Assembly (NCBI GenBank): GCA_963669175.1
Contig: OY769902.1
Coordinates: forward strand, 1,271,240 to 1,335,239
Direction of reading: 5' to 3'
Origin: a bacterium
GTDB lineage: Bacteria; Electryoneota; Electryoneia; Electryoneales; Electryoneaceae
Length of the DNA: 64,000 nt
Shown here: positions 763 through 62,862 of the stretch, piece after piece
Numbering within the stretch: position 1 is the stretch's first letter
How the letters are laid out: every line of letters begins with the position of its first letter
The notes under the pieces: generated by a model
Databases searched by the model: none
Told to the model about the DNA's origin: nothing
The model's input: the letters and a program-made list of their open reading frames with translations, nothing else
Made by a program: the position numbers and the translations under genes

Positions 763-801
763 GAAAATGGGACAGACCACGAAGGGTCAGTCCCGATTTT
801 C
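763..801. repeat. Expanded dyad box (GAAAA-GGGAC..GTCCC-TTTTC hairpin)
   Basis: GAAAATGGGACAGACCACGAAGGGTCAGTCCCGATTTTC. The paralogue at 44804-44844 also lies beside a family A copy. Confidence 0.75.
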
Positions 802-3674: not shown

Positions 3675-3702
3675 CGAAGGATTGATTCTCTTATTTTTAT
3701 TG

Positions 3703-4045
3703 CTGTTCTCGATTTTATTCCGACATAATAAAGATTGCCGGGAAAAGGGGACGGGATCCTTTTCCTCGCGCGCATATGAAACACTCTCGCCGAACTTGTG
3801 GAAAAGGAAACTGTCCCCTTTTCCGTGTACGTCCTGCCTGCTCTCAAGAAAAAGGGTACAGCCACCTTTCCCGGTCCATGCTCACAGCGGGAAGGCTTTG
3901 CCCCAAGGAAAGGAAACTGTCCCCTTTTTCCATATCCTTATCCTTTATTCCAACCATATGGTTGACCTTTCACTGATCTGGCACATGACCACATGACGGA
4001 ATAATAATGGGAATCGCTATATTTAGAATAGACCACCGCCGGGCA
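3703..4045 (+). repeat. Family C element, copy C1
   Basis: Collinear with 40789-41160 and 55521-55727. Dyad boxes at 3741-3765, 3800-3824, 3848-3871 and 3907-3931. Subterminal inverted repeat TTATTCCGACAT (5' side) / ATGACGGAATAA (3' side). Ends in the CCGCCGG hairpin foot. Confidence 0.85.
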
Positions 4046-4046
4046 A

Positions 4047-4184
4047 CCGCCTTCGCAAGCTACGGCGTTTTCAAGCCGGCGGGGCCAAAGAACCGCCTTC
4101 GCAAGCTATGGCGTTTTCAAGCCGGCGGGGCCAAAGAACCGCCTTCGCAAGCTACGGCGTTTTCAAGCCGGCGGGGCCAAAGAA
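4047..4184. repeat. Tandem repeat, 46 bp x 3
   Basis: The unit CCGCCTTCGCAAGCTA(C/T)GGCGTTTTCAAGCCGGCGGGGCCAAAGAA occurs at 4047-4092, 4093-4138 and 4139-4184. It expands the simple hairpin CCGCCGG-ACAAG-CCGGCGG seen at the same position of copy C2 (41140-41158). Confidence 0.95.
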
Positions 4185-8065: not shown

Positions 8066-8566
8066 GACAGGATAATAGGGTACAAGGATGCTGATGAAGA
8101 ATTTACAGGACGAAAAGGATGCTAAGGATTATAAGGATGGCTGCTCATAAGAATTTGTGCATATTATCGACGAGCACGTTTCGTCAGGTCTTGACGTGAT
8201 GCCTTTTTCTTGTTCTTCTCCGCAATTTCAGACACCTGTCCGACTTCACCGCTGCTATTTCGCATGATAGATCGTCGTCAGGCATCACGTTGTGACCTGA
8301 CGACAGCGAGAGTGCTGATACCGGTGGCAGGTCACAACGCGACAATAACAGGACGAGAGGTGGTTTCAGTATCATGTGCATTCAGAAATACATTGCGAAA
8401 GCCGAAAACGGAATGTCGCGTCAAGACCTGCCACAACTCTGCCCGGATGCACAAATTCGTGTGAGGAACCAGTTTTTTATCCTTGATATCCTTGTTATCC
8501 TTTGCATCCTGTACATGGAACCAAGAAGCTCCCCTTGCCATCCTTCTATCCTATCATCCTGTGAGT
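8066..8566. repeat. Family D element D2 (double arms) with family A copy nested in its centre
   Basis: Forward AGGAT arrays lie at 8066-8098 and 8100-8138. The reverse arrays lie at 8474-8515 and 8533-8566. A2 occupies 8139-8470. Confidence 0.8.
8139..8470 (-). mobile_element. Family A element, copy A2 (full length)
   Basis: TIRs are GGCTGCTCATAAGAATTTGTGCAT (8139-8162) and ATGCACAAATTCGTGTGAGGAACC (8447-8470). All internal boxes are intact. No target duplication is seen. Confidence 0.9.
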
Positions 8567-16553: not shown

Positions 16554-16557
16554 ATAA

Positions 16558-16613
16558 AGTGAAAAAGGTAAAGAAGTGAAAAAGGTAAAGAAGGGAAAAA
16601 AGTAAAGAAAGTA
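16558..16613 (+). repeat. Family G purine-rich box (reiterated)
   Basis: AGTGAAAAAGGTAAAGAAGTGAAAAAGGTAAAGAAGGGAAAAAAGTAAAGAAAGTAG. Confidence 0.8.
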
Positions 16614-22117: not shown

Positions 22118-22155
22118 GATATGATTTCATTTGATTCATGCTATTTTGAATGGGT

Positions 22156-22450
22156 AAGCAGGCGAAAAATGGGACTGTTACCTTTTCATGCTTTTGAATG
22201 CAGAACAATCACATTAGTATTGAAGAAAAGGTGACTGTACCAATTTTTTACCTGCTCTGTAAGATGGTTCAGGACTGGAAAATGCTGGGACAGCCACCTT
22301 TTCGAAACATATCTTCCCAGCGATCAATGATTTTGCGTACAAATGAAACATGGTCAACAATATCTGGCATATTCGCAGGCGAAAAGAGTGGCAGTCCCCA
22401 TTTTCCCCCGGCAATTCCCCCCTTCCCATCGAATTGGACCCTTACATCCA
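22156..22450 (+). repeat. Family B element, copy B1
   Basis: Collinear with 34393-34685 and with the reverse complement of 62611-62862. Dyad boxes at 22164-22187, 22225-22249, 22277-22304 and 22381-22405. Confidence 0.85.
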
Positions 22451-22513: not shown

Positions 22514-22547
22514 CTCGAGATCCCCGGTCAAGCCGGGGATGACATAG
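22514..22547 (+). repeat. Family H hairpin
   Basis: CTCGAGATCCCCGGTCAAGCCGGGGATGACATAG. Its 3' half seeds the adjacent tandem repeat. Confidence 0.8.
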
Positions 22548-22620
22548 AGTGCAGGGGATGACATAGAGTGCAGGGGATGACATAGAGTGCAGGGGATGAC
22601 ATAGAGTGCAGGGGATGACA
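22535..22620. repeat. Tandem repeat, 19 bp x 4.5
   Basis: The unit GGGGATGACATAGAGTGCA occurs at 22535, 22554, 22573 and 22592, with a partial unit at 22611-22620. Confidence 0.95.
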
Positions 22621-34372: not shown

Positions 34373-34392
34373 GGATTGCCAGTCTCGGGGAC

Positions 34393-34685
34393 AAGCAGGC
34401 GAAAAACGGGACTGTTACCTTTTCATGTTTCAAGTGTAGAAATGACATAGCAGTAAAGACGAAAAGGTAACTGTACCAGGTTTTCTGCCTGCTGCTACAG
34501 GCTGTTCCGTGCAGGAAAATGCCGGGACAGCCACCTTTTCGCATCATGGTTTTCAGAAATCAATAACTTTGCGTTTAAATAATAAATGGTTAACAGTTTA
34601 CAACATGTTTTGCATGCGAAAAGCGTGGCAGTCCCCATTTTCCATCGGAAATTTCCATTGTCTATCGAATTTGCTCTACACATCC
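34393..34685 (+). repeat. Family B element, copy B2
   Basis: Dyad boxes at 34401-34424, 34461-34485, 34514-34540 and 34618-34643. It starts 21 nt after the permease stop. Confidence 0.85.
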
Positions 34686-38776: not shown

Positions 38777-38870
38777 GGATTCACAGGATGAACAGGATGG
38801 TGTAAGGATGCCAGAGATAAATTGCCGGATTCACAGGATGAACAGGATAGGAAAGGATGCCAAGGATATA
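38777..38870 (+). repeat. Family D, two tandem forward arms (D7)
   Basis: GGATTCACAGGATGAACAGGAT..AAGGATGCC occurs at 38777-38815 and again at 38827-38870. No reverse arm lies nearby. Confidence 0.8.
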
Positions 38871-40656: not shown

Positions 40657-40788
40657 GGTGAACCTCTCTCTCTTTGGAGTTGGAAAGTTATAAAGTTACA
40701 AAGTTGAAAAGTTATTAAAAGAAAAACTGGGACTGATCTTTCGCGGTCTGTTATTCATTGATCAAAGGAAATAGAGAATAAAGACAAT

Positions 40789-41160
40789 CTGCTCTCGATT
40801 CAATTCCGTCATAATGAAGATTGCCGGGAAAAGGGGACGGGATCCTTTTCCTCGTGCTAATGCAGCATATTTCTGAACTATTCATGGAAAAGGAAACTGT
40901 CCCCTTTTCCGCGTAATTCCTGCTTGCTCCCAAGAAAAAAGGTACAGCCACCTTTCCCGGTCCATGCTCACAGCGGGAAGGCTTTACCCCAGGGAAAGGA
41001 GGCAGTCCCCTTTTTCCATATTCTTTCTCCCCATATAGTAGATCTTTCACTGATATAGAACATAACCATATGGCAGATTAATATTGGGAATCGCTACACA
41101 ACTGAAGGTGAAGCTCTTCAAATAAATTAAAATAGACCACCGCCGGACAAGCCGGCGGGG
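40789..41160 (+). repeat. Family C element, copy C2
   Basis: Dyad boxes at 40827-40851, 40886-40910, 40934-40957 and 40993-41017. It ends in the hairpin CCGCCGG-ACAAG-CCGGCGG. Confidence 0.85.
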
Positions 41161-41184: not shown

Positions 41185-41299
41185 CAGAAATCGTAGAATA
41201 CTACAATCAGAAATCGTAGAATACTACAATCAGAAATCGTAGAATACTACAATCAGAAATCATAGAATACTACAATCAGAAATCGTAGAACACTACTAT
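41185..41299. repeat. Tandem repeat, 23 bp x 5
   Basis: The unit CAGAAATCGTAGAATACTACAAT occurs at 41185, 41208, 41231, 41254 and 41277, with degenerate continuation to about 41320. Confidence 0.95.
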
Positions 41300-41344
41300 C
41301 ACAAATCGTTGCATATCACTGTTATAAACTGTAGTCCTTCATAA

Positions 41345-44541: not shown

Positions 44542-44796
44542 AAGTTGTGGCAGGTCTTGACGCGGCCGTTATGAATTCTCCCTGAGAGGTTTTCCATGGC
44601 AACCAAAGATGCCAATCAAATCACGAATCGCGACTACCGGTCGCGTTGTGACCTGCCACCAGCCGCTGATCCCTTTTACCGTCAGGTCACAACGTGATGC
44701 AGAGCGAATATCCATGGAGATAGCAGGCAAAATACTTGTCATACACCTGAGGATGCTGAAAGATCTCGAAATCTGCATCACGTCAAGACCTGACGG
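44542..44796 (+). repeat. Family A diverged core (A5), no TIRs
   Basis: It retains box i 44542-44563, box ii 44641-44660, box iii 44680-44700, ATAGCAGGC 44720-44728 and box v 44775-44795. The inter-box sequence is unrelated to A1-A4. Confidence 0.8.
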
Positions 44797-44803
44797 AACT
44801 TTA

Positions 44804-44844
44804 AAAAACGGGATAGACCACTTCGGGTCAGTCCCTGTTTTTCG
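44804..44844. repeat. Expanded dyad box hairpin
   Basis: AAAAAACGGGATAGACCACTTCGGGTCAGTCCCTGTTTTTC; compare 763-801. Confidence 0.75.
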
Positions 44845-55455: not shown

Positions 55456-55489
55456 AGTGAAAAAAGTAGGCAGTGAAAAAAGTGAAAAA
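55456..55489 (+). repeat. Family G box, left arm of a perfect 34-bp inverted repeat
   Basis: AGTGAAAAAAGTAGGCAGTGAAAAAAGTGAAAAA is the exact reverse complement of 55814-55847. Confidence 0.95.
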
Positions 55490-55520
55490 AGAAGTCACAT
55501 ATTTCTGACTTAAAGTTTAG

Positions 55521-55727
55521 CTGTTCTCGATTTTATTCCGACATAATGGAGATTGCCGGGAAAAGGGGACGGGATCCTTTTCCTTGCGCTTATAACAGAA
55601 CATTCCTGAAGTATTCATGGAAAAGGAAACTGTCCCCTTTTTCCATATCCTTTCTTTCAACCATAGAAAGGATCTTTCACTGATATAGCACATGACCCTA
55701 TGACGGATTAATAATGGGATTCTCTAT
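55521..55727 (+). repeat. Family C element, copy C3 (internally deleted)
   Basis: Dyad boxes at 55559-55583 and 55619-55644. Both ends are collinear with C1 and C2. Confidence 0.85.
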
Positions 55728-55813: not shown

Positions 55814-55847
55814 TTTTTCACTTTTTTCACTGCCTACTTTTTTCACT
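55814..55847 (-). repeat. Family G box, right arm of a perfect 34-bp inverted repeat
   Basis: TTTTTCACTTTTTTCACTGCCTACTTTTTTCACT lies 8 nt downstream of the SDR stop, in gene sense. Confidence 0.95.
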
Positions 55848-55855
55848 ACGCATTA

Positions 55856-62589: not shown

Positions 62590-62612
62590 GACTCACAGGA
62601 TGCAAGGATACT
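62590..62612 (+). repeat. Family D short forward arm (D8)
   Basis: ACTCACAGGATGCAAGGATACTG lies directly after the ankyrin stop and abuts B3. Confidence 0.7.
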
Positions 62613-62862
62613 GATGGAAAATTGAGACTGCCACTCTTTTCGCTTGTGAGTATGTTGTGGATTGTGAACCATGTTGAATTTCAGACTCTGGGTATTGCTT
62701 ACTGGAAAACATGTTACGAAAAGGTGGCTGTCCCGGCATTTTCCTGCGTGGAACTATCCTGTATTGCAAGCGAAAAATCTGGTACAGTTACCTTTTCATC
62801 AAGACTGGTATGATAGTCCTGTAGTTGAAAACATGAAAAGGTAACAGTCCCATTTTTCGGAA
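62611..62862 (-). repeat. Family B element, copy B3 (inverted)
   Basis: Dyad boxes at 62616-62641, 62718-62744, 62772-62797 and 62835-62858, in reversed order relative to B1 and B2. Confidence 0.85.

Follow-up and report, generated by a model that had tools for sequence, protein, structure and literature searches.

We found that a box of about 23-25 nt, which is repeated in six arrays in a 64-kb stretch of DNA from a bacterium of the Electryoneaceae, is probably the repeat unit of a population of non-coding selfish DNA of the type formed by repetitive extragenic palindromes (REPs) and by REP doublets that form hairpins (REPINs). As judged from sequence comparisons, this population appears to be tied to one single-copy gene for a Y1 (HUH) transposase, which we call RAYT-1, for REP-associated tyrosine transposase (RAYT). 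The stretch analyzed, here called the window, extends from position 1271240 to position 1335239 on one contig of 5.447 Mb (50% G+C). RAYT-1 is outside the window, and positions on the whole contig are given below as genome positions.

The initial annotation of the window had reported at least 24 copies of the box, all of them intergenic. A search with GAAAAGGNNACNGTNNCCTTTTC, allowing up to three mismatches, gave 13 matches in the window, compared to 0.04 expected from shuffled sequences. A gapped and oriented form of the pattern recovered 22 of 22 boxes at the coordinates previously listed and gave two additional matches, each with four errors and each within coding sequence. The box at 3800-3824 is exactly GGAAAAGGAAACTGTCCCCTTTTCC. 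Together with two hairpins that are expanded at the center, the 22 boxes account for the reported number, and their coordinates were confirmed (Table 1). All six arrays sit outside, and between, long open reading frames (ORFs), as had been claimed.

The box is abundant throughout the genome. The ungapped pattern (up to three mismatches) found 534 boxes in 217 clusters, compared to 2 boxes in a genome simulated with a first-order Markov model. The gapped, oriented pattern found 707 boxes, compared to 8 per strand in a reversed-genome control. Twenty-six of the 534 boxes (4.9%) were inside ORFs of at least 150 aa, which cover 82.5% of the genome.

Each box is polar. It consists of a conserved half, (G/A)AAAAGGG(G/T)AC-N-G, and a variable half that is roughly complementary to it; the logo of the oriented boxes is G-(G/A)AAAAGGG(G/T)AC-N-G-nnW-CCTTT(T/C)CC. 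Positions G8, A10, C11 and G13 are 98-100% constant, and positions 12 and 14-16 are variable. In the commonest variants one half is always GAAAAGGG(G/T)AC, and the other half is GGAAAC, GGTAAC, GGTGAC, GGATCC or one of several others. The commonest variants of the conserved half contain GGGGACAG. The box had been described as dyad-symmetric, with the outer GAAAA/TTTTC and the inner AC.GT as its most constant parts. An approximate dyad is present, and AC-N-G is indeed constant. True symmetry is not found, and the T of the inner GT is just 52% conserved.

The working unit is not the single box. It is an inverted doublet of ~83 nt in which the conserved halves face outward, because boxes pair in '+-' order and do so with a fixed geometry over unrelated families of spacers. 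The oriented boxes of the ungapped set formed 58 '+-+-' clusters and 55 '+-' clusters; '++' and '--' arrangements were almost absent. With the gapped pattern, 590 of the 707 boxes were in 295 inverted '+-' doublets. The center-to-center distance was 57-62 nt in 236 doublets and 96-105 nt in 58, the latter class being the second doublet of one array family (family B, below). Clustering the '+-' spacers with blastn gave 93 families, 90 of which had a start-to-start distance of 57-62 nt. That is, about 90 unrelated spacer sequences share the same doublet geometry. Successive doublets are spaced more loosely (46-48, 74-80 or ~112 nt). In the window, each four-box array consists of two tandem doublets; the array called C3 has just one. 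We rejected a CRISPR-like interpretation: the arrays have 2-4 ordered, non-identical boxes and are repeated as wholes, spacers included.

One candidate role suggested for the boxes was that of REP-like sites for a Y1 (RAYT-type) transposase, and looking elsewhere in the assembly for such a gene flanked by boxes gave a positive result that supports this role. A Pfam Y1_Tnp search of the genome gave ten genes. One of them, the single-copy gene RAYT-1 (genome 3618158-3618883, minus strand), has complete four-box arrays of family B on both sides (genome 3617850-3618095 and 3618848-3619092). The two arrays share one orientation and 81% identity and are about 30-65 nt from the gene; the upstream array ends ~28 nt from the start codon. 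Array B3 of the window has the box order and orientation of both of these arrays. None of the other nine Y1_Tnp genes has a box within 3 kb. With one cluster per 25 kb, the chance of a two-sided flank is ~4e-3 over ten genes.

The RAYT-1 product (220 aa; Pfam Y1_Tnp, 7e-15) passes the NCBIfam equivalog NF047646 (REP_Tyr_transpos, "REP-associated tyrosine transposase") with 82.3 bits against a cut-off of 80. It scores 23 with the IS200 model, for which the cut-off is 55. Its best match among solved structures is TnpA-REP of Escherichia coli (PDB 4ER8), in an alignment that places PNHIHL of RAYT-1 opposite the HUH motif and matches the Tyr of YVENNP to that of YIYINP. The motifs of RAYT-1 are PNHIHL, LWQ, YVENNP (which also resembles subclass 2.4) and WPWSS, followed by a C-terminal tail of ~80 aa. 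This tail had no Pfam match, including to helix-turn-helix (HTH) domains and DnaA_C, even at E = 10. The most abundant 16-mers in the flanks of RAYT-1 have 53 and 39 copies genome-wide. According to published means, the commonest flanking 16-mer has 5.2-5.6 copies in the case of housekeeping genes and 57-140 in that of REPIN-linked RAYT groups (PMC5581495).

The conserved half of the box also resembles sequences that flank relatives of RAYT-1. Homologues with 34-49% identity were present in about half of 40 related genomes, and there were >4,500 in a protein collection. A GACAG core was present in the flanking repeats of all 12 homologous loci that we examined. At most of these loci the repeats are in inverted orientation on the two sides of the gene, and eight of the 12 had GGGACAG or GGGGACAG. 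These loci include metagenome-assembled genomes labelled Nitrospirota and Ratteibacteria; one example is AAATAGGGACAGCGACC ... GGTCGCTGTCCCTATTT. For the inverted repeats that flank TIRYT genes, the published motif is GGGGWSAS (Di Nocera et al. 2013, PMC3733652), and both the conserved half of the box and the cores in the homologue flanks fit this motif. The TIRYT group is equated with subclass 2.1 of TnpA-Y1, tabulated as 'REP: no' (Quentin et al. 2018, PMC6006769), and with Group 1 of Bertels (PMC3733652, PMC6006769), whose flanking 16-mers average 12 copies (PMC5581495). Because the cores in the homologue flanks match the published GGGGWSAS, we infer that the constant inner AC.G of the box is the clade-wide end motif of the transposase family of RAYT-1. 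In this genus, the clade motif appears to have become embedded in a GAAAAGG/CCTTTTC palindrome and then to have multiplied. Among the 40 related genomes the oriented box pattern was found in a single genome, which is of the same genus (80 hits in an assembly of 390 contigs) and has doublets 61-62 nt apart; the 39 others had no boxes.

Boxes of a doublet can pair with each other. It had been proposed that any box can self-fold or pair with a neighbor, and pairing with the neighbor was much the more stable alternative: the doublet at 3738-3828, folded as single-stranded DNA, gave a single long hairpin with box 1 paired to box 2 (-25.6 kcal/mol, z = -6.0), compared to -6.6 kcal/mol for each box alone. 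The second doublet of the same array formed a long hairpin of -19.8 to -22.4 kcal/mol. In its sequence, positions 1, 2, 22 and 23 pair between boxes and not within a box. Over 130 distinct doublets, a mean of 21.2 of 29 positions were Watson-Crick paired between boxes, compared to 16.0 within a box. At the variable positions 1, 6 and 22, pairing between boxes was found in 328 of 390 cases, compared to 204 +/- 9 (maximum 239) with permuted partners and 221 within the box, and several pair types occurred (A-T/G-C/C-G, G-C/T-A and T-A/C-G). The central triplets covaried in a B-like subset (TTA/TAA, TCA/TGA, TTT/AAA; 127 of 192, compared to 99 +/- 5 permuted). Covariation of the central positions 14-16 over all doublets was not significant by permutation (235, compared to 239). 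We regard these results as consistent with a constraint on the long hairpin, and not as proof of one, because the relatedness of the copies inflates permutation tests.

An alternative view is that the boxes act chiefly at the RNA level, as hairpins that terminate transcription or protect 3' ends, which has been shown for some REPs of E. coli. The hairpins are stable and extragenic, three of the six arrays in the window are between convergent genes, and a secondary role of this kind, exploited by the host, is known for REPs (PMC3733652). We consider this very improbable as the main role of the boxes; a secondary RNA role is conceivable. Genome-wide, 47, 46 and 112 arrays were in convergent, divergent and tandem intergenic regions, compared to ~38, ~46 and ~121 expected from the lengths of these regions; that is, there was no enrichment between convergent or divergent genes, and no type of array favored one intergenic class. 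Both orientations of the arrays are found. Relative to the replichores, family B had no orientation bias (24 vs 23), and families C (42 vs 24) and A4 (16 vs 5) may have a weak one, as read from a GC-skew curve that is asymmetric. We found no terminator-like sites (a GC-rich stem and then a T run) in two arrays and their flanks, and scans of these two arrays for terminators and promoters did not rise above shuffled sequences. An Rfam scan of the window gave a tRNA and no family matching the boxes. The role as RNA hairpins at 3' ends, which the initial annotation had listed, also leaves the link to a transposase and the clade-wide GGGACAG core unexplained. A sigma-54 or sigma-70 promoter downstream of the C arrays was considered separately and rejected, since by eye it is not conserved between copies.

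Operators or architectural sites for a dimeric host protein that recognizes a double-stranded dyad had also been listed. The approximate dyad of the box, with its constant outer GAAAA/TTTTC and inner AC.G, and the regular spacing of four boxes per array would suit such sites. Several other properties of the boxes make this role hardly credible, and nothing favors it. The ~700 copies have no bias toward divergent (promoter) regions and are distributed near background. The two halves of a box are systematically unequal, and boxes of the B type have insertions of 1-4 nt within one arm, which would be intolerable in a rigid site for a dimer. Partner boxes 60 nt apart covary, and the boxes are restricted to one genus.

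There are at least three families of arrays (C, B and A4), which have the same box order and unrelated spacers. Genome-wide there are ~66 long copies of C, ~47 copies of B and ~21 copies of A4, the last of which is found outside the window (for example, at genome 218588 and 286965). Mean pairwise identity in box columns, compared to non-box columns, was 0.94 vs 0.80 in family C, 0.90 vs 0.61 in family B and 0.92 vs 0.62 in family A4, in agreement with the claim that the boxes are better conserved than the sequence between them.

Family C differs from the others in having ends of its own. Its copies have sharp ends, TTGCTGTTCTCGATT ... GGGAATCGCTA, which are imperfect terminal inverted repeats (TIRs). 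In the copy called C1, a TA adjoins each of the ends TTGCTGTTCTCGATT and GGGAATCGCTA. This copy lies within another repeat, of which uninterrupted, empty-site copies are at genome 692280-692354 and 4797775-4797842, and the TA is duplicated. A different C copy is in the central TA of a B-type box; comparison with an intact copy of the box at genome 786314-786400 again showed duplication of TA. C2 is 91% identical to C1 across 141 nt, and C3 shares the ends of both. Genome-wide, a short form (about 160 nt) and a long one (about 260-280 nt) both recur. The second box of C3 is a composite of the left part of box 2 and the right part of box 4, which is what a deletion between these boxes would produce. 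Because of the sharp ends, the imperfect TIRs and the TA duplication at filled compared to empty sites, family C can be described as a miniature inverted-repeat transposable element (MITE) that targets TA and carries two doublets as cargo. As a MITE it is 210-320 nt long and has 60-110 copies. We found no gene enclosed by a pair of C-type ends and no TIR pair 0.7-5 kb apart in the genome. An IS630-like element is present in five identical copies (genome 3627807, 4008928, 4461038, 4494026 and 4999436), and its ends, TAGTGCCAGTTTAGATCAAGT ... ACTTGATCTAAAATGGCACTA, are unrelated to those of family C. The identity of the five copies suggests recent activity. C3 itself is bracketed by inverted arms rich in GTGAAAAAAGT (window 55458-55497 and 55815-55850) and was probably inserted into another palindromic repeat. 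Arms of a similar kind are found next to an A4 array at genome 218500, and window 16557-16609 contains a related tandem repeat of 17 nt.

The properties of family C raise the question of whether all of the boxes are mere internal parts of MITEs that are moved by a DDE enzyme, with the Y1 neighborhood a coincidence in a repeat-rich genome. The genome is indeed rich in other small repeats. We nevertheless find this explanation improbable. Rather than being confined to copies of two MITEs without excess conservation, a case that the initial annotation had raised, the boxes occur with the same fixed geometry in ~90 unrelated spacer contexts and are conserved in excess in each of the three families, including C. 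In the B and A4 arrays, the boxes are themselves the only ends. The two-sided flank of a Y1 gene is unlikely by chance, and the conserved half matches the flank motif of a whole clade of transposases. The genome has no autonomous partner with C-type ends that we could find.

None of these alternatives jointly explains the polarity of the box, the fixed doublet geometry over unrelated spacers and the link to a transposase. By analogy with characterized relatives, RAYT-1 most likely copies the boxes. Recognition, cutting and rejoining of single-stranded DNA are established for E. coli TnpA-REP and for TnpA of IS200/IS605 elements (PMC3479197, PMC6006769). RAYT-1 would recognize the conserved half, presented in a hairpin on single-stranded DNA at replication forks, and would cut and rejoin the DNA there, as do E. 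coli TnpA-REP and IS608 TnpA. Doublets could thereby be copied to new intergenic sites. Copies without the motif would no longer be copied, and such selection for copyability at the level of the element is our proposed reason that boxes are conserved while spacers drift. C-type and A4-type boxes would also be served by RAYT-1, and family C may have spread its two doublets as cargo by a second route, that is, by a cut-and-paste, DDE-type enzyme.

Several observations weigh against the proposed role of RAYT-1. Only B-type boxes adjoin the gene; the more numerous C-type boxes and the A4-type boxes are without a neighboring transposase gene, so that their use of RAYT-1 is suggested by the shared conserved half. 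The link between gene and boxes was seen in a single genome, with no orthologue of >50% identity in the collections searched: none exceeded 49% in the 40 relatives, genome contigs, metagenome contigs or protein collection. An intact RAYT-1 orthologue was not found in the same-genus genome as assembled, although boxes are present there. The NCBIfam score of RAYT-1 only just exceeds the cut-off. No GTAG/CTAC or CGTC tag was found at either foot of the hairpin, and the oriented logo has at most 0.33 bit outside positions 0-24. Lastly, partner boxes might covary in part because they descend from inverted duplications, rather than through selection for pairing.

This is probably a REP/REPIN-type, and more exactly a TIRYT-type, repeat population with its transposase, a kind of system known since 2010-2013. 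Like the REPs and bacterial interspersed mosaic elements (BIMEs) of E. coli with TnpA-REP, and the REPINs of Pseudomonas fluorescens SBW25 (PMC3116915, PMC3337134, PMC3479197, PMC5581495), the boxes are short, extragenic, imperfect palindromes in hundreds of copies. They form inverted doublets of fixed spacing that fold into a long hairpin, and they flank a single-copy Y1/HUH transposase gene on which the flanking 16-mers are as abundant as those of REPIN-linked RAYTs. The clusters of alternating units resemble BIMEs. There are also differences. Classical REPs are defined by an unpaired 5' tag at the foot, GT[AG]G (or CGTC), whereas here the core GGG(G/T)AC-N-G is inside the box. The spacers here are long (about 35 nt) and unrelated between families, the repeated unit is an ordered four-box array of 250-320 nt, and the host is neither a proteobacterium nor a cyanobacterium.

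The likeness to TIRYT genes and their TIRtrons (PMC3733652) is in the repeat and, less clearly, in the protein. The flanking repeats carry GGGGWSAS, here GGGGACAG, and simple inverted repeats with this core surround the homologous genes of many phyla. TIRYT proteins are defined as having ~238 aa, a NHVH-type HUH motif, W[EQ], Y...NP, an SS motif and an HTH-like C-terminal tail; the protein here has ~220 aa with NH(I/V)H, WQ, Y..(N/L)NP and, ahead of a C-terminal tail, a 'WSS' motif. No Pfam match to HTH or DnaA_C was obtained for the tail of RAYT-1. A further likeness is that dimers or clusters are described for some TIR families, which are moderately abundant (PMC3733652). The family here differs from the 'REP: no' of subclass 2.1 and the average of 12 copies in Group 1 in being very large (about 700 boxes) and self-palindromic. 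The TIRs, sharp ends, TA duplication and empty sites of family C are like those of TA-duplicating bacterial MITEs (IS630/Tc1-mariner-type, such as Correia elements). The likeness extends to family C only, in which the boxes are internal cargo and not the ends and for which the genome has no matching transposase that we found. What is new is the sequence family itself, the host lineage, the ordered arrays of two doublets, the capture of doublets by a TA-type MITE, and the very high copy number for a transposase clade that had been surveyed as REP-less.

If the boxes are one transposase-linked repeat population, then ~700 conserved intergenic boxes, a sizeable share of the non-coding DNA, are explained together, and annotators need not treat them as operators or small RNAs. 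RAYT-1 and its ~83-nt candidate substrate are a concrete, testable pair for this Y1 clade, and the comparison suggests that GGGGAC-N-G is the functional counterpart of the GTAG of enterobacterial REPs. We offer a broader notion tentatively, as one that could well be wrong: the clade of ~220-aa Y1 proteins (TIRYT, subclass 2.1 or Group 1; at least 4,500 relatives) may drive REPIN-like populations in which GGGGWSAS (here GGGGAC-N-G) replaces GTAG as guide or cleavage motif. The clearest case would be the one described here, with about 300 doublets, accompanied by about nine parallel Y1-repeat systems and by doublets captured by a MITE.

Table 1. Box arrays and center-expanded hairpins in the window (window coordinates)
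Feature	Coordinates	Strand	Description
C1, C-family element	3700..4019	+	TIR-bounded, TA-duplicating MITE with two box doublets; boxes span 3741-3931
C1 doublet 1	3741..3824	.	boxes 3741-3765 (conserved half left), 3800-3824 (conserved half right)
C1 doublet 2	3848..3931	.	boxes 3848-3871, 3907-3931
C2, C-family element	40786..41096	+	doublets 40827-40910, 40934-41017; boxes 40827-40851, 40886-40910, 40934-40957, 40993-41017
C3, short C-family element	55518..55726	+	one doublet; boxes 55559-55583, 55619-55644
B1, B-family four-box array	22155..22410	+	doublets 22164-22249, 22277-22405; boxes 22164-22187, 22225-22249, 22277-22304, 22381-22405
B2, B-family four-box array	34392..34647	+	doublets 34401-34485, 34514-34643; boxes 34401-34424, 34461-34485, 34514-34540, 34618-34643; repeat families D13, D14
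B3, B-family four-box array	62612..62862	-	doublets 62616-62744, 62772-62858; boxes 62616-62641, 62718-62744, 62772-62797, 62835-62858; orientation opposite to B1 and B2
Center-expanded hairpin	763..801	.	GAAAATGGGAC-AGACC-acgaag-GGTC-A-GTCCCGATTTTC
Center-expanded hairpin	44804..44844	.	AAAAACGGGATAGACC-acttc-GGGTCAGTCCCTGTTTTT

The center-expanded hairpins form a family of ~18 copies genome-wide, including the two in the window. Their GGGACAGACC/GGTCAGTCCC stem, together with an A run and a T run, makes them resemble two-way intrinsic terminators. Both copies in the window are within ~80 nt of sequence of the GACCTG-core hairpin family, which is found at window 8139-8470 and 44542-44796. The 16-mer GTTCCGTCAGGTCTTG (24 copies) is common to this family and to the flanks of the Y1 gene at genome 5087366-5087869, which is probably the cognate transposase gene.

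The genome also encodes a paralogue of RAYT-1, RAYT-2 (genome 1916479-1917315, in region 1916090-1917370), with 46% identity. RAYT-2 has HVN in place of the HUH motif, has YVELNP, and is tandemly triplicated at its 3' end; its orthologue in the same-genus genome retains HVH. The repeats that flank RAYT-2 are CTAGGGACAGACGGTAG (47 in the whole genome), and a center-expanded hairpin immediately adjoins the 5' end of the gene.

For seven of the ten Y1_Tnp genes, an abundant 16-mer particular to the gene occurs in inverted copies on either side, and two more genes adjoin an abundant 16-mer without inverted symmetry. The 16-mers include TGGCCCGACTGCTTGC (105 copies), TGGCGCTCACGGTGGG (62) and TCTTAGCACCCGGCTT (51), and example loci are at genome 2242304-2242885, 5013752-5014225, 5361186-5361680, 1503039-1503494 and 4081897-4082553. 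These flanks suggest roughly nine parallel transposase-repeat systems in one chromosome. Since most of its ten Y1 genes are flanked by an abundant repeat particular to the gene, the chromosome lends itself well, as a natural system, to the study of coexisting REPIN-like populations.

Other repeats are close to the box arrays. Tandem repeats adjoin three arrays, at 4045-4184 (46 nt x3), 41185-41309 (23 nt x5.4) and 22535-22620 (19 nt x4.5). The 46-nt unit contains a CCGCCGG...CCGGCGG hairpin, and its 16-mer TTGGCCCCGCCGGCTT (75 copies) adjoins the Y1 gene at genome 4919199. Inverted arrays of an AGGAT motif with a 9-nt period bracket stretches of 100-330 nt at 8099-8138/8471-8516, 13352-13419/13511-13565, 21937-22004/22070-22124 and 38779-38868. 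The first of these pairs brackets an element of the GACCTG family.

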